64,000 bases of DNA, taken from positions 32,001-96,000 of the forward strand of contig CAZZIO010000022.1 in the NCBI GenBank assembly GCA_964654465.1, given 5' to 3'. The stretch comes from an uncultured Dictyoglomota bacterium. GTDB taxonomy: Bacteria; Dictyoglomota; Dictyoglomia; Dictyoglomales; Dictyoglomaceae. The position numbers were made by a program, and so were the translations under genes. The notes under the pieces were generated by a model, which made no database searches, was not told the origin of the DNA, and saw nothing but the letters and a program-made list of their open reading frames with translations. Positions within the stretch are counted from its first letter, which is position 1; the number at the start of each line of letters is the position of its first letter. Below, in pieces: positions 3,181 to 44,855 of the stretch.

Positions 3181-4431
3181 TTAACTTAATTTTGGGAAAT
3201 ATTCTTTATTTTCCTCTATTAATCTATTAAGAACTTTTTCCGCAAGAGTAAATGAAGAGATTAATGGATGTTGTGCAAGAGCAAAAACAGCCTTTTTATA
3301 CGAACCTTCCATAGCAGACTCTATTGTCAATCTCTCATATACTTTTACAGCCTGTATGATTCCTTTTACTTCGAGAGGTAAATTACCTATAATATACCTT
3401 TGAAACATATCATGTTTTACGTAAACCGGTATCTCCACCACTGAATCATCCGGAAGATCTCTTATAGCCCCATTATTCATAACGTTTATTATCTGAAACC
3501 CATCTTTCATACCTAAAAGATGCATAATCAGATTAACAGCAGATATTGAATAATATGCTCCCCCTCTTTTGGAAAGTTCCACTGGTTTATTATCTACCTT
3601 AGGGTCACTATATATTTTTAATAACTCTTCTTCTACTTTCATCACTTCTTCTGCTCTTTTTGGTTTATGTTTTAACTCTTCAACTTTTTCCTCTCTAAAA
3701 AAGTAATATCTGAGATAATAATTGGGGAATAAACCTAAAATGTCTATAATTCTTTTTTCCTCTTCCGACAATTTTTCTTTTGCCTTATCTAATAAATATT
3801 GAGTTTTATCTTCTCCCTTTATAAATATTCTTCTTACAAAACTCAAATGATTAAGACCAAAATAGTCTAAAAAGACCTCTTCTAAGCTTACACCTGATAA
3901 ATCAGCAAAAAATTTTTGAAAATTTATAGGCACATTACATAAACCTATAGCCTTTACTTTAGTATATCTGAGAAGCATTTCTGTGATTATTCCGGAAGGA
4001 TTAGTAAAATTAATAAACCAAGCATTAGGAGCATATCTTTCTACCTTTTTTGCTATATCATAAACCACTGGTATAGTTCTAAGAGCATTTGCAAATCCGC
4101 CTGCCCCAGTAGTCTCTTGTCCTAAAAGATTAAATTCTAAAGGAATAGTTTCATCTAAGAGTCGCGATTTATTACCTCCAACCCTTATTTGATTTATTAT
4201 AAAATCAGCTCCCTCTAAATTTTCTTCCAAATTTGTACTTTTTAAAAATTCTATTTCAGCTCCAGCTTTTCTGGCCATCCTTAATAGAAAATCATATACA
4301 ATATTTAATCTTTCAGTATTAATATCAATAAGAACAATTTTTAAAGGATGAACCTCTTGCCAAATATTTAAAAACCCTTCAATTAATTCTGGAGCATATG
4401 TACTACCTCCACCAATAACTACTACTTTCAT
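3181..4431 (-). CDS. 6-phospho-beta-glucosidase, GH4
   Basis: IGGGSTY, GQETTGAGG, NFTNP, GLCNVP and GLNH motifs. Confidence 0.92.
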   Translation of the reverse strand: MKVVVIGGGSTYAPELIEGFLNIWQEVHPLKIVLIDINTERLNIVYDFLLRMARKAGAEIEFLKSTNLEENLEGADFIINQIRVGGNKSRLLDETIPLEFNLLGQETTGAGGFANALRTIPVVYDIAKKVERYAPNAWFINFTNPSGIITEMLLRYTKVKAIGLCNVPINFQKFFADLSGVSLEEVFLDYFGLNHLSFVRRIFIKGEDKTQYLLDKAKEKLSEEEKRIIDILGLFPNYYLRYYFFREEKVEELKHKPKRAEEVMKVEEELLKIYSDPKVDNKPVELSKRGGAYYSISAVNLIMHLLGMKDGFQIINVMNNGAIRDLPDDSVVEIPVYVKHDMFQRYIIGNLPLEVKGIIQAVKVYERLTIESAMEGSYKKAVFALAQHPLISSFTLAEKVLNRLIEENKEYFPKLS

Positions 4432-29906: not shown

Positions 29907-30569
29907 TTATTTAATAACCTTTGCTACCAATTCGAATAATTTAGGAGTAATTCTAAAGGCACTCTTCCCTTCTACAATCACAAGGTCATCAATATAAAAA
30001 TCGAGAGAAGTATTTGATGGAGCCTCCACATATAAGCTAAGATCAAGAATAGAAACATTAGCAGGAATCTCATAAGTACCAGAAAGCTCTACCCATTTTC
30101 CATTAGGTACGTTATTTTCATGCTTTATCCAATCATATTGAGTGTTAGAATCGGTATCATATTTTCTCTGCATAGTAAGGCCTAAATACTGACTTGATCC
30201 AGATTTTTGCATTACCCATACAGATATGCTATAAACCTTACCTGGCTTTAATATATCCTTCAACTGAATCTGAGCGCCATGCCATCCTGCACTTCTTCCA
30301 GAGACATATAAACTATACTTACCTGTATGTGCCTCTTTATCGGTTACTAAGATCTTCACATTATCCCCTCTTGCTGTCCATCCTTCTTCTTTGGAACTTT
30401 CAAAAGTTGTGATAATTAAAGCGTTAGGAATATTTGGTACTGAAGCAACCTCTTTCTTAATCTCTTCTAAAATTTGATTTTGTTCTGTGTTAGACATAGG
30501 AGCCTTAGCACAGCCAGCAATAAAAAACAATACTATCAATAAAGAACAGATACTAAAGACCCTTTTCAT
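29907..30569 (-). CDS. Lipoprotein with a single CBM22/CBM4_9-like module and no catalytic domain
   Basis: Lipobox IAGC; FE..GWTARG, AHTGKYSLYVSGR..WHGAQ, WVELSGTY and FYIDD. Confidence 0.82.
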   Translation of the reverse strand: MKRVFSICSLLIVLFFIAGCAKAPMSNTEQNQILEEIKKEVASVPNIPNALIITTFESSKEEGWTARGDNVKILVTDKEAHTGKYSLYVSGRSAGWHGAQIQLKDILKPGKVYSISVWVMQKSGSSQYLGLTMQRKYDTDSNTQYDWIKHENNVPNGKWVELSGTYEIPANVSILDLSLYVEAPSNTSLDFYIDDLVIVEGKSAFRITPKLFELVAKVIK

Positions 30570-30629
30570 ACTCGGTACCTCCCTTGTTTATAAATTTTTA
30601 GAAATGGTGGAAATTGTTTTTCCTCTCTC

Positions 30630-31451
30630 CTACTTTACCATTAAACCATCTATGTAATAGGACAAAGATTGATCTGGCGATTCAACATAAAGTAAAAGTT
30701 CTATTGCATCAGTAGGTACATTATAAGAACCTGAAAGCTCTACCCATGTCTCATTAGGTACATTCTTTTGCCAGACAATAGTATCATAGTTTGTACTTCC
30801 ATCATTATTCGTTCTTTGCATAGTCAAAGTTATTTTTTGCTCTGATCCAGAATTTTGATAAACCCATACCTTTATACTATAAGTATTACCAGGTTGCAAA
30901 TACTGTACTCCATCTTGAGAAAGTAAAGGTATTTGAGCTCCATGCCAATTACTGCTTCTACCAGATACGAATAAAGAATAATTTCCATATTTTGCCACAT
31001 CAGAATTTATATTTATAGATACCCCTGATCCCCTTGGTTGCCAAGATTGAATGGTTTCGTCCTCAAAACTTGTGCTAACAATTGGAACTTCAATTTGAAA
31101 CTCATTCGATATCCTATTACCCTTATCATTATAAGCTTTTATTCTATAAGAATATACACTATTACGGGAAACACTATCATCAATATAAGAGGTCGTGTTA
31201 GGTTCTAATTGCGCTATTGATTCATATTGACCACTACTTGTTTTTCTTTCTACTATAAACCCATCTTCATTATTAGAATTATCCTTCCATACAAGTTTAA
31301 CTCTTACCTCAGTTAATATGGGATCTACTAATTCAGCAATTAAATTAGAAGGTGCTTCAGGTAGTCCCTCTAATGATGTCTTTGGAGTACAGCCCCCAAT
31401 TAGAATAAAGATACAGAATAATAAACAAAGGACCAATAACTTTTTAAACAT
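30630..31451 (-). CDS. Lipoprotein with an FN3 domain and a CBM22/CBM4_9-like module, non-catalytic
   Basis: Lipobox IGGC; PEAPSNL..WKDNSNNEDGFIVER..YSYRIKAYN; CBM motifs as in the neighbouring gene. Confidence 0.82.
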   Translation of the reverse strand: MFKKLLVLCLLFCIFILIGGCTPKTSLEGLPEAPSNLIAELVDPILTEVRVKLVWKDNSNNEDGFIVERKTSSGQYESIAQLEPNTTSYIDDSVSRNSVYSYRIKAYNDKGNRISNEFQIEVPIVSTSFEDETIQSWQPRGSGVSININSDVAKYGNYSLFVSGRSSNWHGAQIPLLSQDGVQYLQPGNTYSIKVWVYQNSGSEQKITLTMQRTNNDGSTNYDTIVWQKNVPNETWVELSGSYNVPTDAIELLLYVESPDQSLSYYIDGLMVK

Positions 31452-31550: not shown

Positions 31551-33467
31551 CTATTGTTTAAAGAAAAATTGTTCTGGGAATGAGTTAAGTTCAGATCTAT
31601 AAGGATCATCCCATAGTATTCCAGATGGGACATTTCTTAAATTGTTCTTTACTATTACAAGCTGAGGCAATCCTCCCACTGTTCCAATAATCCAAATATT
31701 CTTTCTATGTAAAGCTATGATTTGCTTTATTATTGTATCTCTCTTTCTTGCATCCACAGTTCTATTAAATTCATCCCATAGATCATATATTTTTCTAATA
31801 TCTCCAGAAGGTTCTTCTCCTTCTTGTCCTTTAGTCCAATACCATCTGGCATAAAGAGGTGCCCAAGGACCATCTGTCCATGTTCCAAGTAATCTTCCTG
31901 CATTTATAGCCACATTACTCATACGATCCATAACCCAAACACCAATTTCTATATCACCTGAATTACAATTTGTGGTATATAAACTTCTATCAACCTGTTT
32001 AACTATAGTTTTTATACCTATAGCCTCCCAATAGCTCTTAATAAGCTCCATTGTGCTCATATTAGCACTTCCTGGATATGTAGTAAAACTTACTATTAGC
32101 TCAATTGGTTTTCCATCTGGACCTAATCTAAATCCATCTTTCCCAACTTTTAAGCCCATTGCATCTAACAATATTTTAGCTCTCCCAGGATCATATTGAG
32201 CATAAGCTTTTGCCCAAGTCTCATCATAATATGCAGCTCCAGGTGGAATAGCTGCTTGCATTGGTACTCCTAAACCAAAGTAAAGAATCTTATTAATTTC
32301 TTCTCTGTTAATAGCAAGAGATAAAGCTTGTCTAAATCTTACATCTTGGAATAGTTTTCTCTTTACAGGATCTTTTATATTTTGATTTAGATATATAGCA
32401 GGATCTGCCCCTGTACCAGTCCTCCAAACAAGTACCCTGTAATTTCCTTTATCTTTATTTTGCATGAATAAAGTATAATTGGGAAGCCTCATATGTCTTG
32501 CTTGAAAGTCTATCTCTCCAGCTATAGCCTTCATATTTATCATTTCTGCATCACTAACAAGGTAGTGTACTACTCTATCAATATATGGTAATTGGTTCCC
32601 TTCGGTATCTACTACTGGATAATAAGGGTTTCTTTCCATAACGAATACTGGCTCATTAGGACTCTTGCTCACAATCTTCCAAGGTGACATGGTAGGTAAA
32701 TCTGGATTCTGTATATAATCAATCATAAATTGGAATAGCTCATACCATTTATTAAAACCTTTTTGTTTGGCCATAGCCTCCAACTTGTCTTTTGGTGTAT
32801 ATTTAGGATGAAATTGAGAGAGATAATGCTTTGGTGCATAAAAGCTAAAAGATCCTTTTGAATTATCAATAAACCATCCTTGGGTTGGGAAGGTATAAAT
32901 AAACATCGGATTTGGATTTTTAAATTCTATTCTAAAAGTATAATCATCAACCTTAACAAATTTTGCTCTAACCCCATCCTGTACAAAAGCAGATGGGAAT
33001 GTAGGAGTAAGCTCCTCATTACCTATTACATCTTCATACCAGAAAATTACATCATCAGTTGTAAGTGGATGGCCATCTGACCATTTTAATCCTTCTCTTA
33101 ACTTAAAAGTAAATATCCTACCATCCTTAGAAATAGTATATTTCTCTACAAGCCATGGAAGAATCGTCTTACTATCAGAAGCCCATCTCATTAAATTGTT
33201 AGCATCATAGCATATTTTAGCAATACCCCATCTATCACCAGGTCCTGTCCAAGCTCTTCTTAGAGTACCTCCATATCTACCAACTTCTTCAAGAGGTTTT
33301 ACAACAATTGGATTTTTTGGTAATCTTTGCTCTACTGGTGGAAGTTTTCCTTCTTTTACAAGAGCCGAAAGCATAGGTGATTCATTGTATTTCTTTTGTC
33401 CTACAATAGTATTTCCGAAGATTAACAAGAATATTAACAAGAGAGATAATATTTTTATGGATCTCAT
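31551..33467 (-). CDS. Opp/Dpp-family (family 5) substrate-binding protein, probably for oligosaccharides
   Basis: ESPML..GKLPPVEQRLP..P, LKWSDGHP..DDV and GNQLPYID motifs. Confidence 0.9.
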   Translation of the reverse strand: MRSIKILSLLLIFLLIFGNTIVGQKKYNESPMLSALVKEGKLPPVEQRLPKNPIVVKPLEEVGRYGGTLRRAWTGPGDRWGIAKICYDANNLMRWASDSKTILPWLVEKYTISKDGRIFTFKLREGLKWSDGHPLTTDDVIFWYEDVIGNEELTPTFPSAFVQDGVRAKFVKVDDYTFRIEFKNPNPMFIYTFPTQGWFIDNSKGSFSFYAPKHYLSQFHPKYTPKDKLEAMAKQKGFNKWYELFQFMIDYIQNPDLPTMSPWKIVSKSPNEPVFVMERNPYYPVVDTEGNQLPYIDRVVHYLVSDAEMINMKAIAGEIDFQARHMRLPNYTLFMQNKDKGNYRVLVWRTGTGADPAIYLNQNIKDPVKRKLFQDVRFRQALSLAINREEINKILYFGLGVPMQAAIPPGAAYYDETWAKAYAQYDPGRAKILLDAMGLKVGKDGFRLGPDGKPIELIVSFTTYPGSANMSTMELIKSYWEAIGIKTIVKQVDRSLYTTNCNSGDIEIGVWVMDRMSNVAINAGRLLGTWTDGPWAPLYARWYWTKGQEGEEPSGDIRKIYDLWDEFNRTVDARKRDTIIKQIIALHRKNIWIIGTVGGLPQLVIVKNNLRNVPSGILWDDPYRSELNSFPEQFFFKQ

Positions 33468-33485
33468 CTTTTAACCCCCTCTCAT

Positions 33486-34496
33486 CTATACAATTGGAAT
33501 ACCCTTCAAGTCAAGTTCTTTAGCAAAATGACAAGCCACGTAATGTTCATTACCTATATCAATTAAATCTGGCATCACCTCCTTACATATTTCCTTAGCA
33601 TAATTACACCTTGGATGAAAATAACATCCAGAAGGAGGGTTTGAAGCATCAGGTACTTCTCCCTTTAATAAAATTCTACGAGTTCGCATCTTCGGATCAG
33701 GTTTCGGAACAGCAGAAAGTAAAGCTTCTGTATATGGATGTCTTGGTTTTTCAAAGATTTCCTCTGTCCTTGCCAATTCTACAATCTTACCTACATACAT
33801 AACAGCCACCCTATCACAAATATGTTCTACTACTCCTAAATCATGAGATATAAAAAGATAGGTTAAATGAAATTCTTCTTGTAAATCTTTAAGAAGATTC
33901 AACACTTGGGCCTGAATTGAAACATCAAGAGCAGAAACTGGTTCATCACAAACCACTAATTTAGGATTAAGAGCCAAAGCCCTTGCAATACTTATTCTTT
34001 GTCTCTGTCCACCAGAAAAAGCATGAGGATATCTTCTCATATATTCAGGTCTTAATCCAACTTTCCTCATTAAATCTGCTACCCGTTCCTCTAACTCCTT
34101 ACCCTTTGCAATCCCATTTACAAGAAGCGGCTCTCCAATAATCTCTTTAACAGTCATTCTTGGGTTCAAAGATCTAAAAGGATCCTGAAAGACCATCTGC
34201 ATATATTTTCTAACTTTATTTAATTCATTATTGGGTAGCTTAGCCACATTAATAGATATTCCATCAACATGAAGAATAACATCTCCTCCTGTTGGGTCAT
34301 ATGCCCTCAATATTACTTTACCAGTCGTAGTTTTTCCACAACCAGACTCACCAACAAGCCCTAAGGTTTCTCCCTCCCTTACAAAAAAGCTAATATCATC
34401 TACAGCTTTAACCGTTGCAATCTGTTTTTTAAAGAAGCCTTTTGTCACAGGAAAATATTTCTTCAAATTTTTTACTTCCAAAAGGATACCATTCAT
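33486..34496 (-). CDS. Opp-type ABC ATPase (OppF-like)
   Basis: [21 protein letters not shown] and the C-terminal GC.FHPRC. Confidence 0.92.
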
Positions 34497-35494
34497 GACT
34501 TTTCTACCTCTCCATAAAGTAAACAGCTCACTTTATGTCCTGGTTTTACTTCTTTTAATTCTGGAACTCTTACATTACATAAACCATTTACAAATTGTGG
34601 ACATCTTGGATGAAATGTACAACCAGTTGGCATATTGTAAGGATCAGGAACAATTCCTTTTATAGCTTTTAATCTTCCCCTAACTTTCTTTCCTATTTTA
34701 GGAATAGATTCCAATAAGGCTTTCGTGTAAGGATGTAAGGGGTCATAGAATATATCTTCCACCGAACCACTCTCCACTATCTTTCCAAGATACATTACTA
34801 TAACCTCTTCTGCCATTTCTGCTATAACTCCTAAGTTATGGGTTATCATCATAACTGCCATGCCAAATTGTTTCTGTAATTCCTTCATAAGCTCTAATAT
34901 TTGAGCTTGAATTGTCACATCTAAGTTAGTTGTAGGTTCATCCGCTATCAATAATCTTGGTCTACAAGATAAAGCCATAGCAATCATTGCCCTTTGTAAC
35001 ATTCCACCACTGAATTGATGAGGATATTCATCTATTCTCAATTCTGGTCTTGGAATTCCTGCAATCCTCATTAACTCAATTGCTGCTTCTCTCGCAGACT
35101 TTTTGTCAAGCTTTTGATGTAACATAATAGCCTCTATAATCTGTTCCCCCACAGTATGTACAGGAGAAAAAGAGGCTCCAGGTTCTTGGAATATCATAGC
35201 AATCTCTTTCCCTCTTATACTTCTAATTTCGTTCCCCTTAGGATCTAACTTTACCAGATCAATAATTTCTCCATCTCTATATAAAAAGATTTCTCCTTGA
35301 ATTTTACTTCTTGGACCAGTTAACTTTAATATGGAAAGGGCGGTAACGCTTTTACCACAACCCGATTCTCCAACAATCCCAAGAGTTTTTCCTTGCTTAA
35401 TATCAAAGCTAATTCCATCAACTGCCTTTACCACTCCCTCTTCTAACACAAAATACGTTCTTAAATCTTTTACTTCCAATAATTTATCCATCAT
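34493..35494 (-). CDS. Opp-type ABC ATPase (OppD-like)
   Basis: [16 protein letters not shown] and HPYT motifs. Confidence 0.92.
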
Positions 35495-35504
35495 TTATTC
35501 CTCC

Positions 35505-36644
35505 TTATCTCGCATAAGGATCTGCCGCATCCCTCAAACCATCTCCTACAAAATTAAAAGAAAGAACAACTAATATTACAAACAAAACAGGAAGGAGTAA
35601 CCAAGGAGCCAATGCCACAGTTCTAAAGTTTTGAGCATCCTGTATTAAAACCCCCCAACTAAGAGCAGGTGGTCTTATACCTAAGCCCAAGAAACTAAGA
35701 GATGTCTCTCCAATAATCATGCTAGGTATTGACAGGGTTAAAGAAGCTATAATATGGCTTAAGAAAGATGGTAATAAGTGTCTAAATATAACTCTTCTTT
35801 CACTGGCTCCAGCTAATTTTGCAGCTGTAACAAAATCTTCCTCTCTTAAAGACAAAAACTTACTTCTTACCTCACGAGCAAGACCCGTCCAACCAATAAA
35901 AGAAAGTATTATGGATATTGCAAAATAAACCTTTACAGGAGACCAATTAGCAGGTACAGCTGCGGAAAGTGCCATCCATAGAGGTAATGTTGGTATACTT
36001 CTTAAAATTTCTATAACTCTTTGAATAAGCAAGTCAAAAGGACCACCAAAATATCCTGAAATACCCCCAATCACTATTCCAAAAATAAAACTTAAAAAAA
36101 TACCTACAAGACCCACAGTGGTAGAAATTCTCGTACCATATATTACCCTAGAAAATACATCTCTGCCTAAGCTATCAGTACCAAATAAAAATATGTGTCC
36201 ATCTCCCTCTACTCCAAATAGATGAATATTACTTTTAAATAAACCTAATACTTTATACTCATGGCCCCTAACAAAAAATTTAATAGGATACTTTTTGGAT
36301 TTATCTTCTGTATAGATCCTTTTTAAGGTATTAGGATCAACCTCCATTTTATATGCATATACAAAAGGCCTCAAATGAAAGCCAGTTTCATCAATAAAAT
36401 GAATTTTTTGAGGTGGTGCAAGTACATAACGAACATCGTATTTGTAGGGATCACTTGGAGCAAAAAATTCACAAAAGACTGCAATTATATAAAAGATTAT
36501 TAATATTATACCTCCTAAAATAGCCAATTTGTTTCTTTTGAATCTCCACCACATAAGTTTCCATTGAGAAGCCACATAAATTTTTTCCTCCTTCTCTATA
36601 TAACTTTCTTCTATTATTTCTTCTCTCTTTTCCATCTTTGACAT
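35505..36644 (-). CDS. Opp-type ABC permease (OppC-like)
   Basis: GTDSLGRD, EAA loop and GDGLRDAADP; start adjusted to the SD-supported ATG. Confidence 0.9.
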   Translation of the reverse strand: MSKMEKREEIIEESYIEKEEKIYVASQWKLMWWRFKRNKLAILGGIILIIFYIIAVFCEFFAPSDPYKYDVRYVLAPPQKIHFIDETGFHLRPFVYAYKMEVDPNTLKRIYTEDKSKKYPIKFFVRGHEYKVLGLFKSNIHLFGVEGDGHIFLFGTDSLGRDVFSRVIYGTRISTTVGLVGIFLSFIFGIVIGGISGYFGGPFDLLIQRVIEILRSIPTLPLWMALSAAVPANWSPVKVYFAISIILSFIGWTGLAREVRSKFLSLREEDFVTAAKLAGASERRVIFRHLLPSFLSHIIASLTLSIPSMIIGETSLSFLGLGIRPPALSWGVLIQDAQNFRTVALAPWLLLPVLFVILVVLSFNFVGDGLRDAADPYAR

Positions 36645-36654
36645 ATTATCCCTC

Positions 36655-37638
36655 CTATTCATACCTTACCCTTGGATCTACCCATGCAAGAAGAATATCT
36701 GAGATCAATGTACCCAATAAGGTTAAACAACTTAACATAAGGAGGAATGCACCAGCTAAATACATATCCTGATTTCTTAAAGATTCTAAGAGCAAAGGTC
36801 CTGATGTAGGTAAATTTAATACGATAGCTGTAATCTCAGCTCCTGAAACCAAAAACGGAAGTGACCAACCAACAGTACTTATAAAAGGAATTAAAGCTAT
36901 TCTAAGAGGATATTTAAATACTACTTTCCATTCTTGAAGTCCTTTTGCTCTTGCTGTTAATACATATGGCTTATTCAATTCATCTAAAAGATTAGCTCTT
37001 AGAGTTCTTATCATTCCTGCTGTGTTTGCAAGTCCAATAATCACTACTGGAACCCATATATGTTTCAACATATCTAAAAATTTTGCTAAACTCCAAGGAG
37101 CTTCTAAATATTCAGGAGAAAAAAGTCCTGTAAGATTTTGTCCAAAATAAGCATAAGCTACCCATAGCAATATTAAAGCAACCATAAAAGCAGGTACAGA
37201 AAGACCAATATATCCTAAAAAGGTAAATAAATAATCTCCAAAAGAGTATTGGTGAGTGGCAGAGTAGGTACCAATTAAAAATCCTACAACCCATATAAAG
37301 ATAAGTGTAAATAAAGAAATAACGAAGGTTATTGCAAGCCTTTCTCCTATGAGTTCACTTACTGGTCTATTATATAAAAGAGATCTACCAAAATCCCCAT
37401 GTAACACATTCCATATCCATAATAAATATTGCTCCCATATGGGTTTATCAAGACCATATTGTTTTTTTAAAGCTTCAATTGTTTCAAGATTTACAGACTC
37501 ACCACTTGTAGCAAGTTGAGCTATATAAGAAGTAAGAAAATCCCCTGGAGGAAGTTGTATCACTATAAAAACAATTATAGATATAAAGAACAAAGTTAAT
37601 ATCATATATAGAAGTCTTTTGATGATATATTCTTTCAC
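36655..37638 (-). CDS. Opp-type ABC permease (OppB-like)
   Basis: PPGD, GDFGRS, TARAKGL and DPRVR motifs. Confidence 0.9.
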   Translation of the reverse strand: MKEYIIKRLLYMILTLFFISIIVFIVIQLPPGDFLTSYIAQLATSGESVNLETIEALKKQYGLDKPIWEQYLLWIWNVLHGDFGRSLLYNRPVSELIGERLAITFVISLFTLIFIWVVGFLIGTYSATHQYSFGDYLFTFLGYIGLSVPAFMVALILLWVAYAYFGQNLTGLFSPEYLEAPWSLAKFLDMLKHIWVPVVIIGLANTAGMIRTLRANLLDELNKPYVLTARAKGLQEWKVVFKYPLRIALIPFISTVGWSLPFLVSGAEITAIVLNLPTSGPLLLESLRNQDMYLAGAFLLMLSCLTLLGTLISDILLAWVDPRVRYE

Positions 37639-40662: not shown

Positions 40663-41586
40663 TTAATCCTCCCTTTCTCCTTTTGGGTCAATATGAACCA
40701 CAACATCTGAATTTTCAATATTTTTCTTTATAGAATCTTGAACCCTCAAAGCAATTTCATGAGCTTCTTTTGCGGTAAGATTATTTTCTACCTCGATATG
40801 TATAGTTATTACCTTTTGATTTTTATAATCATGCACTAATATATCGTGATAGTTTAAAACACCTGGTATAGAACATACAATACTTTCTATTTTCTTTATA
40901 AACTCCAATTTAGGGGCTTCTCCTATAAGAAAATTAGTAGAAGATTTAATCAAATCAAAACCAACTAAAAAAATTAATAACGAAACAATCAATCCTAAAA
41001 TACCATCTAAGATATACCATTCAAACATTGCAAAGACAAGACTAAGAGCCACAAGAATAGTAGCAATAGCATCACTTCGGTGATGCCATGCATCAGCAAT
41101 TAGGGTTGATGAATCAATCTTTTCTCCAAGAAAAATAGAAAATCTAGCCATCCATTCTTTAAAAATTGCAAAAATTATGAGTAATAGAAAAACCATAAGA
41201 TTAAAACTAACTTTTTGAGAATGTAAAATTCTTTCAAAAGATTCTTTAGCAAGCTCAATTGCTACTATGATAAGAAGAATAGCTATTACAAGAGTGGCTA
41301 TCTCTTCTATCCTACCATGGCCAAAAGGATGTTCCTTATCAGCAGGTTTATTCCCTAATCTAAAGCCAAGGATAACGATGATAGAAGTTAAAACATCAGA
41401 AAGAGAATGAAAAGCATCAGCTATAAGAGCAATACTTCTTAAATATACACCAGAAAAGTATTTAAAGAGAAAAAAAATCAAATTACCTACCACACTTATC
41501 CAACCTTCTAAATATCCTACATACCTTCTATCAACTTCTTTTTTAGAAAATATTTTTTCAAAAAGCCAGGCATTGAATTTCTTCAT
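40663..41586 (-). CDS. Cation diffusion facilitator (CDF) metal exporter
   Basis: DAFHSLSD, HPFGHGRIE, DAWHHRSD and HIDP motifs. Confidence 0.92.
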   Translation of the reverse strand: MKKFNAWLFEKIFSKKEVDRRYVGYLEGWISVVGNLIFFLFKYFSGVYLRSIALIADAFHSLSDVLTSIIVILGFRLGNKPADKEHPFGHGRIEEIATLVIAILLIIVAIELAKESFERILHSQKVSFNLMVFLLLIIFAIFKEWMARFSIFLGEKIDSSTLIADAWHHRSDAIATILVALSLVFAMFEWYILDGILGLIVSLLIFLVGFDLIKSSTNFLIGEAPKLEFIKKIESIVCSIPGVLNYHDILVHDYKNQKVITIHIEVENNLTAKEAHEIALRVQDSIKKNIENSDVVVHIDPKGERED

Positions 41587-41700: not shown

Positions 41701-41743
41701 TAAAAGGATTATATAAGATAAATTTTTAAAAGTCAAAAAACAA

Positions 41744-42793
41744 TTAAAATTTGAATTTCTTAACTGCTTCTATTAAGGCTCTAATATTTTCTCCTGGTGT
41801 CCCTGGAGACACACCTCCTCCAGCTGATAATATAATACCCTTTTTTTGACCATAATCTTTTAATATATTTTCAACACTTCTTTTTACATCTTCTTCTTTT
41901 CCTTTAACAAGGATATCAAGAGGTGGAACATTTCCCATAAGACATATTTTCCCTTGAGTCATTTCATAAACATCTTTTATATTTTGAAGATGAGTAAAAT
42001 TAAAAATATTAATTCCTAAATCTGGTAAATACTTGTAAAAAACATTATTATTTGTATCATTATGATAAATCTTAACTGGGAAATCAAAAGTAGAGAATAT
42101 CTTTTTCAAAGATGGATGTACAAATTCTAAATAATCACGTTCAGAGAAGAAACCCACTATATCATCTAACACCAATATCCCCTCTACCTCATGCAATATT
42201 TCTATCTGAGCAGTAAGAAAATCAATTACAAGTTCTGTTGTAATATCAATTAGCTTTTTAGCCTCTTCTGGATATAATTTTATAGATACTAAGAACTCAG
42301 TAACCCCCATTAAATGAGACGCTACTGCAAAAGGTCCTCTTGCAGCTACAATTTTTATTGATTCACCCATACTATTTATTTTAGGTTCTACATATTTATA
42401 TAATTCAAGTACAAGAGGCATTAGACCATCAGTTTTAGGATTTGGTTTTTTTACTCTCTTTAAAAATTCTGGAAGATCATCTGCAGAATATATAATTGGT
42501 TCTATACTTGGTGTAGAATTTTCATAGAAAATTATTTTTGATCCAAATCCTGAAGGCTCTTGTGCCATACCATATTCAACCCAAAAATCGGGTATAAAAA
42601 TAACTTCGGAAAACTGTTTTTTTATCTCCTTATAAGCCTCAATCCAAATCTCAGGAACAACATAAAACTGTAGATGAGAAATTCCCAAATATCCAGGAAT
42701 CCATGGACTATCCACAATCAGTGCTATAGGAATATCATCTTGTTCCTTAAACTGAACCGCTTTTAATAAAATATCCCAATCTTTTTCTTTCAT
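41744..42793 (-). CDS. Uroporphyrinogen decarboxylase/MtaA-CmuA-fold protein (not canonical HemE)
   Basis: GPF..AS.L.G, LMGNVPP and ILSAGGG..PGTP.ENI motifs; no RQAGR motif. Confidence 0.8.
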   Translation of the reverse strand: MKEKDWDILLKAVQFKEQDDIPIALIVDSPWIPGYLGISHLQFYVVPEIWIEAYKEIKKQFSEVIFIPDFWVEYGMAQEPSGFGSKIIFYENSTPSIEPIIYSADDLPEFLKRVKKPNPKTDGLMPLVLELYKYVEPKINSMGESIKIVAARGPFAVASHLMGVTEFLVSIKLYPEEAKKLIDITTELVIDFLTAQIEILHEVEGILVLDDIVGFFSERDYLEFVHPSLKKIFSTFDFPVKIYHNDTNNNVFYKYLPDLGINIFNFTHLQNIKDVYEMTQGKICLMGNVPPLDILVKGKEEDVKRSVENILKDYGQKKGIILSAGGGVSPGTPGENIRALIEAVKKFKF

Positions 42794-42806
42794 CTCATTC
42801 TCCCCC

Positions 42807-44855
42807 TTATGGATATATTTTCCTTCCCTTATCGTCGGGAATTCCAGTCTTTCTAAAGAAATAAGTATTTATAACATCTCTCCATTCCTTCGCATGTTCC
42901 AACTGCATTTCCAATCTTTTAGAAACTCTTTCAAATATTTTATCATCAATTCTTTCTTTCAATTCATACCATTTTTCCTTAAGAACTTCTACTTCTTCTA
43001 CCCCCTCAAAATGGAGGTCATATATTTGCTGTATAAGAGTTTTTCCAGATTTCAAAATAAATTTATATGGAACCCTGTGGAAGAAAAGAAGTAAGTCTTC
43101 TGGACATTTATTTATATCATCATAAATCTCTCTCCAAGGAGAATGATATTGAAGAGTATAACCTGTTCCTTTTGAAGTTCTATCAATTCCTATAGCCTCA
43201 TAATTTGCCCTATGATATGTACCCCAACGAGAATACTCATAACCTTCAGGATTGGGTCCATAATGATACCCAGGATTCACCATCCAACCAAGTCCAAAAG
43301 GGGTTGTATACTTTTCATAAATTCTATGAGAATTTAACAACATATAAGAAATATTTTCTCTTACTTTGCTATCATCCCCAAATGTCAATTTTATCCAATC
43401 ATCTACCACCTTAGCTATATCTCTATCTGGATTCCATGCTAATACTCCAAAAGTATAAAGATTCGCCTGAGCAAGATCATGTCCAGTCCAATTTGAACTA
43501 TCTCCCACATTTGATACTCCTGCAAAACCATTATATTTAGTCTCAAAAATTTTTCCTTTCAAAATCTCTTTAACTTTTGAGCCTTCACCTTTGGCATAAG
43601 TATCAAATTCTAAAATTTCCTTCCACAATGTACCTAAATAACATAGATGAATTTGTTGCCCAGTATACTCTTGTGTTATTTGCAATTCTAAGATTTGATT
43701 AGTTTTTTCCATCCCCCCAAAAAGCGGTGATACAGGTTCCCTAACTTGAAAATCCATAGGTCCATATTTTATCTGAAGTACCACATTTTCATAAAAATTT
43801 CCATCTAAGGGCTTAAAGTTATCATAAGCTGCTCTAGCTCTATCTGTTTTATAATCTCTCCAGTCTTGCATACAATTATATACAAAGGTTCTCCATATCA
43901 CATATCCCCCATATGGTTCTAAGGCTTCTGCAAGCATATTCGCCCCATCTGCATGAGTTCTCCCATACATGTGGGGACCAGGGTTAAATTCAGAATCAGC
44001 TTTCACTAAAAAGCCTCCAAAATAAGGTATATAATCATAAATTTCTTCTGCTTTTGTCTTCCACCAAATGGAAACTCTTTTGTCTAAAGGATCAGCAGTA
44101 GAAAGACCGCCAAGATAAATAGGAGAAGCAAAATTAATTGAAAGATAAATTTTTATTCCGTAATCCCAGAATATATTGGCAAGTCTTGAAAGAATCTTCA
44201 AATATTTATGGGTTATAAGCTCTACTTCTTTTTTCTTCACATTTACATTATTTATTACAACACCATTTATACCAATGGAGGATAAAAGTCTAGCATAGTC
44301 CCTTGTCCTCTCATTTATAATGATTTTGTTATCTTTAAAAAAAATGGAATTTCCTGCATACCCTCTTTCTACTGTTCCATCCAAATTATCCCAATGATTA
44401 ATTATCCTAAAATAAGATGCAGGATTATCTACATGATTTAAATCATCTAATTTCTCACCTATTCTGAGATTTTCTATTAATTTAAAAACTGCATAAACCA
44501 AAGCCCTTTCATTTTTAGCAGTTATAATTAATATGTCTTTATCATTTTCCTTTATCCTCTTAAGTATAAAACCCTCATTATTTAATTTTCTTTCCCACAT
44601 TTTAGCTTCTTTTATAATATCTTTCATTTGATCGATTTTGCCAATCAAAATATACTTAGAAAAATCAAAGCTTCCTTTTATTACTCTCGGATTAATTTTA
44701 AAGGAATATTTTATAAAGTGTTTAAGTTCCTTGATAGGGACCTCAAGAGATTTGTCATTATCTACAATACAAATAGTTCTAAATAAATCAAAATCTTTTA
44801 TTTTTAAAGTTCTGTAATCCAACCAACACATATCATATGGCTTAACACTACTCAT
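42807..44855 (-). CDS. aguA: Alpha-glucuronidase, GH67
   Basis: [35 protein letters not shown] and [11 protein letters not shown] motifs. Confidence 0.95.

Follow-up and report, generated by a model that had tools for sequence, protein, structure and literature searches.

A 349-residue protein of the URO-D fold, encoded in a 64,000-nucleotide stretch of DNA (the window: positions 32,001 to 96,000 of contig CAZZIO010000022.1, assembly GCA_964654465.1) from an uncultured bacterium of the Dictyoglomota, is, judged from its sequence and gene context, rather likely to be the substrate-specific methyltransferase (MT I) of a corrinoid-dependent O-demethylase system. Its substrate would be a carbohydrate methyl ether, 4-O-methylglucuronate. 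We refer to this protein as the target. Its gene (41744..42793, minus strand, in window coordinates) belongs to PF01208 and directly follows a gene for a GH67 alpha-glucuronidase, and the target is a candidate 4-O-methylglucuronate:corrinoid-protein methyltransferase. The reading draws on two patterns taken together: the target occupies the position of MT I in the operons of corrinoid O-demethylases, and its companion genes supply or consume glucuronate.

The upstream gene (42807..44855, minus strand) encodes an aguA-like protein of 682 residues. Its open reading frame (ORF) matches the Pfam domains Glyco_hydro_67N, M and C with E-values of 7.9e-17, 3e-157 and 1.3e-95, and scores 62, 523.3 and 319.6 bits for the N-terminal, middle (catalytic) and C-terminal domains against Pfam cut-offs of 24.3, 23.5 and 27, which places it within GH67. 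Enzymes of this family release 4-O-methyl-D-glucuronate from xylan aldouronates. The sugar is the main side group of hardwood glucuronoxylan, and its methyl ether blocks the ordinary hexuronate pathway. Only 13 bases separate the two genes (42794..42806, minus strand). The junction reads TAA-GGGGGAGAATGAG-ATG and contains a purine-rich ribosome-binding site, GGGGGAG, ahead of the ATG. ORFs, Pfam domains and spacer sequence all agree with a preliminary description of this DNA, made from the sequence alone, in which the glucuronidase gene was followed after 13 bases by a UroD-superfamily gene with its own ribosome-binding site. A scan of the junction found no terminator-like site, and the two genes are probably co-transcribed; a promoter scan returned matches at the level expected from shuffled sequence (26 against 25.2) and hence adds no weight to an operon. 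The same description held that tetrapyrrole genes were not nearby, and none occurs among the 42 window ORFs scanned with Pfam, a scan in which heme-specific genes were not searched for singly. Neither a corrinoid protein nor an activase is encoded in the window.

At the level of families, the target matches URO-D (PF01208) at 9.9e-46 with 156.8 bits, and public annotation names its relatives uroporphyrinogen decarboxylase. Its scores against the NCBIfam models of HemE, MtaA and MtbA all fall far short of the cut-offs. Specifically, it scores 71.5 bits against 302.95 for the HemE equivalog model TIGR01464, 106.2 against 244 for PRK06252 and 90 against 235.4 for mtaA_cmuA among thiol methyltransferases, and 79.9 against 400 and 54 against 600 for two further MtaA/MtbA/MtsA models, and so is assigned to none of these groups. 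The string RQAGR, a motif of HemE, is missing from the translation, as previously claimed. The low TIGR01464 score indicates that the target does not cluster with HemE, and CbiC and CobS were not found in the genome.

The closest solved sequence relative is MtaA (4ay7, E 3.8e-11). In the alignment of the two, 'iyhndt' of the target stands opposite 'lhicgn' and 'lsagggvspgtp' opposite 'lapgcgiapmtp'. The earlier observation that H-N-D and S-A-G-G-G replace the MtaA H-x-C and C-terminal cysteine (in G-C-G) is therefore seen directly in this alignment. We take the MtaA residues at these places to be the zinc ligands, a set that the target does not have. An AlphaFold2 model of the target built with 32 relatives (pLDDT 93, pTM 0.93) has MtaA 4ay7 as its top Foldseek match (TM 0.79/0.82), followed by many HemE structures at about 0.75-0.78, in keeping with a UroD/MtaA TIM barrel. 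Given that the fold search recovers MtaA and HemE alone, it does not discriminate between functions. CdmB, the sole characterised MT I compared (via PDB), is a marginal match at E 1.6e-4 over residues 157-346, and a search of the ESM Atlas returned URO-D clusters only.

At E <= 0.001 the target matches 3153 proteins in a collection clustered at 90% identity, and clustering at 50% leaves 131 representatives at E <= 1e-30. The hits fall in Dictyoglomota, Chloroflexota, Moorella, Actinomycetota, Verrucomicrobiota and Bacteroidota. The nearest relatives are annotated as Dictyoglomus or Dictyoglomaceae, and many members from Moorella, Thermanaeromonas, Actinomycetota, Anaerolineales and Limisphaerales are more than 50% identical to the target. 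To examine conservation we aligned 91 core members, namely the genes of the survey described below minus seven divergent ones, plus those of seven phylum genomes. D28, S29, W31, E73, E79, R152, Q196, D210 and D211 are invariant in all 91, and H244-N245-D246 is shared by 90 of them; S323 and G325-G327 do not vary among the rows with a residue at these positions, with G-G-G in 84 of 84. As far as the alignment can tell, the conserved residues are a polar, acidic set with one invariant arginine.

The association of the target with GH67 is consistent across the phylum, for which our sample is 11 genomes including that of the window. The target is present in nine and GH67 in ten. All nine target-bearing genomes have GH67 as the gene immediately before the target, and its orthologues in the eight others are 67-82% identical. 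One of the two genomes without the target is 86% complete, and there the contig breaks off next to GH67, just where the target would be expected. The other, G008, is 99% complete and has none of GH67, the target, the corrinoid protein, MtaB or any PF01208 gene. The window's genus and one sister genus share the order GH67, target and a CDF transporter, with corrinoid genes elsewhere. In three genomes of a third genus (G007, G009 and G010), the operon consists of genes for an Opp-type ABC transporter, a corrinoid protein, the reductive activase RACo, MtaB (PF12176, 1.8e-169), GH67 and the target, of which those from the corrinoid protein to the target lie on one strand and overlap or stand about 10 bases apart (G009:C36 also appears in the survey, as locus L001). 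In G006, a further member of that genus, the corrinoid protein gene begins 51 bases past the target on the other strand. Linkage to the genes of a corrinoid system (corrinoid protein, activase, MT II, the last being the acceptor-side methyltransferase) is thus found in four of nine target-bearing genomes, and in the window's genome these genes lie apart from the target on another contig, C65. MtaB was not found in six of the nine. The single in-frame TAG in the target orthologue of G010 (G010:C4:14091-15137; L111:10092-11138) may be a sequencing error, a pseudogene mutation or a site of read-through.

The PF02607 corrinoid protein occurs as one copy in nine of the ten genomes that have any and as two in the remaining one, and the copy of the window's genome is 75% identical to the operon copy. 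With one carrier per genome and this level of identity, it appears that the same carrier stands beside the target in one genus and beside a zinc enzyme in another. We also considered homocysteine S-methyltransferase (PF02574) as a marker; it is present in 11 of 11 phylum genomes, including G008 with no corrinoid protein, and its presence is therefore uninformative on the system.

The genome of the window (1.91 Mb, 99.97% complete) contains only two PF01208 genes, the target and a paralogue of 320 residues on C65. The paralogue is part of a one-strand operon (G000:C65:46000-53200; L012:7012-13170) that encodes a LacI-type regulator, a corrinoid protein, RACo and the paralogue, followed by HcyBio and NIL-4Fe4S ferredoxin genes. 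The corrinoid protein (212 residues, B12-binding_2 and B12-binding domains, D-x-H-D-x-G motif) is the sole copy in the genome, and RACo has 568 residues. The preliminary description had supposed that corrinoid partners, missing from the window, would be encoded elsewhere; a genome search found one corrinoid protein and one RamA-like activase, both in this operon. The paralogue keeps H-I-C-G-N and G-C-D opposite H-I-C-G-N and G-C-G of MtaA, residues by which we classify it as a canonical zinc-type enzyme, predicted to be thiol-directed. A sugar-type (LacI) regulator is odd for a one-carbon system.

No MtaB and no MttB-family gene was found in this genome, and it has no methyl-tetrahydrofolate (methyl-THF):corrinoid enzyme, the sole pterin-binding protein being dihydropteroate synthase in a folK-folE2 operon. 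Given these absences and the zinc-type character of the paralogue, the target is the only candidate in the genome for a non-thiol methyl donor enzyme. Put differently, a conserved corrinoid protein would be left with no recognisable donor-side methyltransferase but the target, unless the zinc enzyme takes methyl from a methylthiol. The genome also has a UxaE cluster and genes of the 2-keto-3-deoxygluconate (KDG) pathway. At one locus (L134, G000:C62:38237-44450), UxaE, a 2-hydroxyacid dehydrogenase, an FGGY kinase, a 6-phosphogluconate dehydrogenase and an SDR are clustered.

Looking beyond the phylum, we surveyed 85 loci (80 metagenome loci from an alignment-based scan, four genome loci and the window), which hold 91 target-cluster genes, seven of them divergent paralogues. 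Many contigs are short, with more than 3 kb upstream in 42 loci only. Neighbours were called by clustering all ORFs and running Pfam on cluster representatives; clusters 1, 2, 6 and 20, and probably also 27 ('unk682' in L051), are shadows of genes on the opposite strand and were left out of the analysis. GH67 is a neighbour in 10 loci (median distance 36 bases) and a corrinoid protein in nine (median 30 bases, same strand in 9/9). UxaC occurs in nine, UxaE in seven, CE15 glucuronoyl esterase in six and RACo in five. Other recurrent neighbours are zinc alcohol dehydrogenase (Zn-ADH) and SDR (14 loci each), GFO/IDH/MocA (11), aldo-keto reductase (7), KDPG aldolase (5) and PfkB kinase (5). Within 5 kb, 31 of the 91 target-cluster genes have a uronate or xylan gene and 11 have a corrinoid-system gene; among the 27 genes flanked by 9 kb or more, the numbers are 14 and seven. 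The immediate next gene, assessable in 67 cases, encodes a corrinoid protein in seven, UxaC in six and CE15 in four, and the immediately preceding gene is GH67 in eight of 50 assessable cases. This recurrence of GH67, UxaC, UxaE, CE15, KDG-pathway, corrinoid, RACo and methyl-acceptor methyltransferase genes accords with the role first suggested for the target.

Several loci combine these functions. In L057, genes for a Zn-ADH, an aldo-keto reductase, a second UroD-like protein, the target, a corrinoid protein, a methyl-THF:corrinoid methyltransferase and RACo are found together, which amounts to a complete MT I/corrinoid protein/MT II/RACo gene set. L055 runs from an aldo-keto reductase through the target, a corrinoid protein and a methyl-THF:corrinoid MT II to UxaC, a divergent second target-cluster copy, CE15 and UxaE; its MT II is of the same type as that of L057 (NF005719, 289.6 bits, cut-off 259). 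In L082 and L090 the target and a corrinoid protein are followed by RACo and a homocysteine S-methyltransferase. The operon of L040 comprises the target, two GFO genes, a corrinoid protein, UxaC, an enolase-superfamily gene, an SDR and a MetE-like gene. This last gene, which closes the operon (L040:13581-14708, 375 residues, MetE-catalytic-domain-like, PF01717 at 1.7e-16), may encode a methylcobalamin:homocysteine methyltransferase. In four further loci a divergent zinc-type URO-D paralogue (H-S-C-G-N) adjoins the core target, ahead of UxaC and with UxaE also downstream (L035:2-, L059:2-, L067:7755- and L089:667-). It is possible that paralogue and core target form an MT II/MT I pair, with no carrier gene in view.

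We placed these linkages on a quick maximum-likelihood tree of the 91 core rows, from which the seven divergent rows and three outgroups had been dropped beforehand. Corrinoid linkage (13 rows) requires seven changes, and is thus scattered over the family tree; GH67 linkage (15 rows) requires four. Corrinoid protein and RACo are both present in three of three further target-bearing genomes (G012, G013 and G014).

From gene content, gene order, conservation and fold, we infer a substrate, a direction of methyl transfer and a methyl acceptor for the target as follows. GH67 would free 4-O-methyl-D-glucuronate from xylan aldouronates, and the target would bind it in a polar TIM-barrel pocket, as the invariant residues suggest. 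There, R152 could hold the carboxylate, and E73, E79, D210, D211 and H244-N245-D246 could protonate or metal-activate the ether oxygen. Co(I) of the small corrinoid protein would take the methyl group, yielding glucuronate and a CH3-Co(III) protein; a variable second methyltransferase would then unload the carrier, and RACo would re-reduce Co(II). In the window's genome the carrier, RACo and the zinc MtaA-like enzyme lie beside homocysteine-biosynthesis genes on C65, so the likely sink is a thiol, possibly homocysteine. The partner would be MtaB in the sister-genus operon, and a methyl-THF:corrinoid methyltransferase, a homocysteine S-methyltransferase or a MetE-like protein in the metagenomic loci. 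Loss of the MtaA cysteines need not be an obstacle to an MT I role, because the UroD superfamily includes MT I O-demethylases, and CdmB and the Moorella O-demethylase contain no zinc, according to the part of PMC13222342 available to us.

A broader version of this proposal is conceivable, if doubtful: the family as a whole would consist of general corrinoid-dependent demethylases of aliphatic carbohydrate methyl ethers, with a thiol sink in the window's genus and a target/MtaB 'ether hydrolase' in the sister genus. In the latter, whose GH67 operon contains only the target, MtaB, one corrinoid protein and RACo as system components, the target would put the methyl group of 4-O-methylglucuronate on cobalt and MtaB, running in reverse, would free methanol.

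How does the proposed system compare with known ones? Corrinoid O-demethylases, with the MT I proteins MtvB, OdmB, VdmB and MtoB and the haloalkane enzyme CdmB, belong to the same fold superfamily as the target, and their four-part gene set is shared with L057 and dispersed in the window's genome. Their known substrates are aromatic methyl ethers and halomethanes, whereas the target has GH67, UxaC, UxaE and CE15 for context and conserves polar residues; further, the methyl sink varies in target systems (zinc MtaA-like enzymes, MtaB, homocysteine methyltransferases), and the host is a fermenter. The methylcobamide:coenzyme M methyltransferases MtaA and MtbA (4ay7) work with small corrinoid proteins, as the target would, but a true MtaA-like paralogue with zinc-type residues coexists with the target in the window's genome. 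HemE has the TIM-barrel fold in common with the target and differs in tetrapyrrole context and in TIGR01464 score. In the MtaB/MtaC system an aliphatic C-O bond is activated for methyl transfer to Co(I), as we propose for the target; MtaB is of an unrelated family (PF12176), and is found in the target operon of three sister genomes but not in the window's genome.

Two other comparisons are instructive. Reisky et al. reportedly described, in 2018, a cytochrome P450 that demethylates 6-O-methyl-D-galactose in marine bacteria. That enzyme likewise strips a methyl ether from a polysaccharide sugar so that catabolism can proceed, but it is of an unrelated family, depends on oxygen and releases formaldehyde, whereas the target system would be anaerobic and would retain the methyl group. 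The C65 operon resembles the Type 1 mlp clusters of Kountz and Balskus, as far as the accessible part of their work describes them, in its corrinoid protein, RACo, zinc MtaA-like enzyme, lack of a THF methylase and sulfur-amino-acid genes. These clusters, which the same part of that work links to methyl-sulfur metabolism, are defined there by Mlp2 and Mlp3 paralogues, in contrast to the single MtaA-like gene of C65.

Several observations weigh against a corrinoid-dependent demethylase. Methanol aside, an aliphatic (sugar) ether has to our knowledge not been reported to donate its methyl group to Co(I). Searches of the window's genome found neither CbiC nor CobS nor a cobalamin riboswitch, so that it would have to import complete corrinoids. 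UxaC (PF02614) was not found there either, leaving the glucuronate product without that isomerase. Most relatives in the survey have no corrinoid gene within 5 kb: this holds for 80 of all 91 and, among the 27 with long flanks, for 20. Some clades are associated with FAD oxidoreductase and Zn-ADH genes or with GFO/IDH/MocA genes and have no uronate gene, so that the substrate may differ across the family and cofactor-free chemistry is possible. In a sample of 151 genomes from a second class, RACo accompanies the target orthologue (E <= 1e-100) in 13 of 13 cases, but it is present in 116 of the 151 overall, and as the genomes are related this co-occurrence is weak. Finally, in the operons with MtaB the roles could be reversed, with the target as the acceptor-side enzyme.

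The alternative that survives best, which we consider unlikely, is that the target is a cofactor-independent uronate enzyme on a HemE-like barrel. It could be a lyase that eliminates methanol to leave a 4,5-unsaturated uronate, much as hexenuronate arises during alkaline pulping, or else a hexuronate-pathway decarboxylase or isomerase. Arguing for such an enzyme, HemE itself is cofactor-free, most relatives of the target are those just mentioned with no corrinoid gene nearby, and the window's genome is without UxaC. Moreover, the target is followed in L035 and L037 by a small cupin and an SDR, presumably KdgF/KduD-like, and in L016, the locus nearest the Moorella homologues (one of which is 66% identical to the target copy there), by KDPG aldolase, PfkB, an SDR and an IclR regulator. 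Counter to this, the corrinoid protein is the next same-strand gene in seven loci, a linkage that recurs in scattered parts of the tree; several of these loci also contain RACo and methyl-acceptor enzymes, and G008 has lost corrinoid protein and target alike. In the window's genome, moreover, no other donor-side enzyme for the conserved corrinoid protein was found.

Alternatively, and this we regard as distinctly unlikely, the target may be the MT II of a methanol system, in which MtaB loads the carrier with methyl from methanol (from pectin or ester hydrolysis, for example) and the target passes it to a non-thiol acceptor such as tetrahydrofolate. The co-occurrence of corrinoid protein, RACo, MtaB, GH67 and target in one operon in three genomes fits this scheme, as do the top sequence and fold match of the target, MtaA, which is the classical partner of MtaB, and the loss of the Cys ligands, which would suit a non-thiol acceptor. 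However, the GH67-target pair is kept in the six of nine target-bearing phylum genomes without MtaB, and a bona fide methyl-THF:corrinoid MT II already stands beside the target in L055 and L057. A general role in one-carbon acceptance would leave the strict pairing with GH67, UxaC and CE15 unexplained, and the Moorella methanol MtaA, at 29.7 kDa in the portion of PMC13391211 available to us, is smaller than the 349-residue target.

Very unlikely, in our view, is a corrinoid-dependent MT I for another donor (fragments of methoxylated lignin that CE15 sets free, or inositols or other sugars bearing an O-methyl group): the next gene encodes CE15 in 4/67 assessable cases, GFO/IDH/MocA genes of the inositol-dehydrogenase type follow the target in 11 loci, and the characterised UroD-type MT I proteins act on aromatic methyl ethers or haloalkanes, but the constant neighbour in the phylum is GH67 (9/9), with (methyl)glucuronate as its product, the invariant residues of the target are charged or polar, unlike the aromatic cavity of CdmB (both points on characterised enzymes as given in the accessible part of PMC13222342), and similarity to CdmB is only E 1.6e-4.

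Other features of the window and its relatives deserve mention. A NiCo (nickel/cobalt) riboswitch (RF02683; 41626-41707, minus strand; 43.1 bits against a gathering cut-off of 37, E 1.6e-8) sits between the stop codon of the target and a CDF cation-efflux gene (40663-41586). It is preceded by a promoter-like site, TTGACT-17-TATAAT (41708-41736, an 11-of-12 match), and ends in a terminator-like hairpin; the order GH67, target and CDF is retained in G002-G005. That a cobalt-sensing efflux unit adjoins a putative B12 enzyme may be coincidence. The remaining large ORFs of the window, beyond the 42 scanned with Pfam, are parts of ABC transporters, some identified by cluster labels and the rest by eye only. 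Beside an SBP5/Opp-type ABC transporter (31551-37638), two small lipoprotein-like ORFs (29907-31451, minus strand) carry one CBM_4_9 module each and may be surface glycan-capture proteins for an oligosaccharide importer. A GH4 glycosidase is encoded at 3181-4431 (minus strand); GH4 includes alpha-glucuronidases, and this enzyme may provide a second route to glucuronate release in the genome.

In the third genus we found a third URO-D-fold type of 364 residues, 26% identical to the target (L114:6756-10734, which is G007:C22; also G006:C34, G009:C63 and G010:C3). It lies in an operon with an FAD_binding_2 oxidoreductase and a Zn-ADH, with no corrinoid gene nearby, and the same two genes precede the target homologue in L003 and L004. 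A 733-residue ORF in G006 (L115:9098-11299, contig C33) joins HTH_OrfB_IS605, OrfB_IS605 and Cas12f1-like TNB domains to a D-2-hydroxyacid dehydrogenase, and is probably an insertion fused in frame or a merge in ORF calling.

A full-text search, whose coverage leaves out most subscription journals, turned up no publication that names an enzyme for cleaving the methylglucuronate ether or links the target family to xylan. The available part of PMC13425298, on methyl 4-O-methylglucuronate, concerns ester hydrolysis by glucuronoyl esterase, not ether cleavage. If our proposal is true, what is new is a known machine, the corrinoid O-demethylase, at work in a new part of metabolism and on substrates of a new class. 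Members of the target family are widespread and carry the annotation 'uroporphyrinogen decarboxylase' throughout. Demethylation of 4-O-methylglucuronate by the target would fill a missing step of anaerobic hemicellulose catabolism and would extend corrinoid O-demethylases from aromatic ethers to sugars. The use of xylan by some fermenters would then depend on imported B12, and plant methyl groups would have a new route to methanol, methyl-THF or methionine in hot springs, sediments, soils and guts. Should the sink in the window's genus prove to be a thiol such as homocysteine, a fermenter that scavenges B12 would draw methyl groups for methionine directly from the side chains of xylan.

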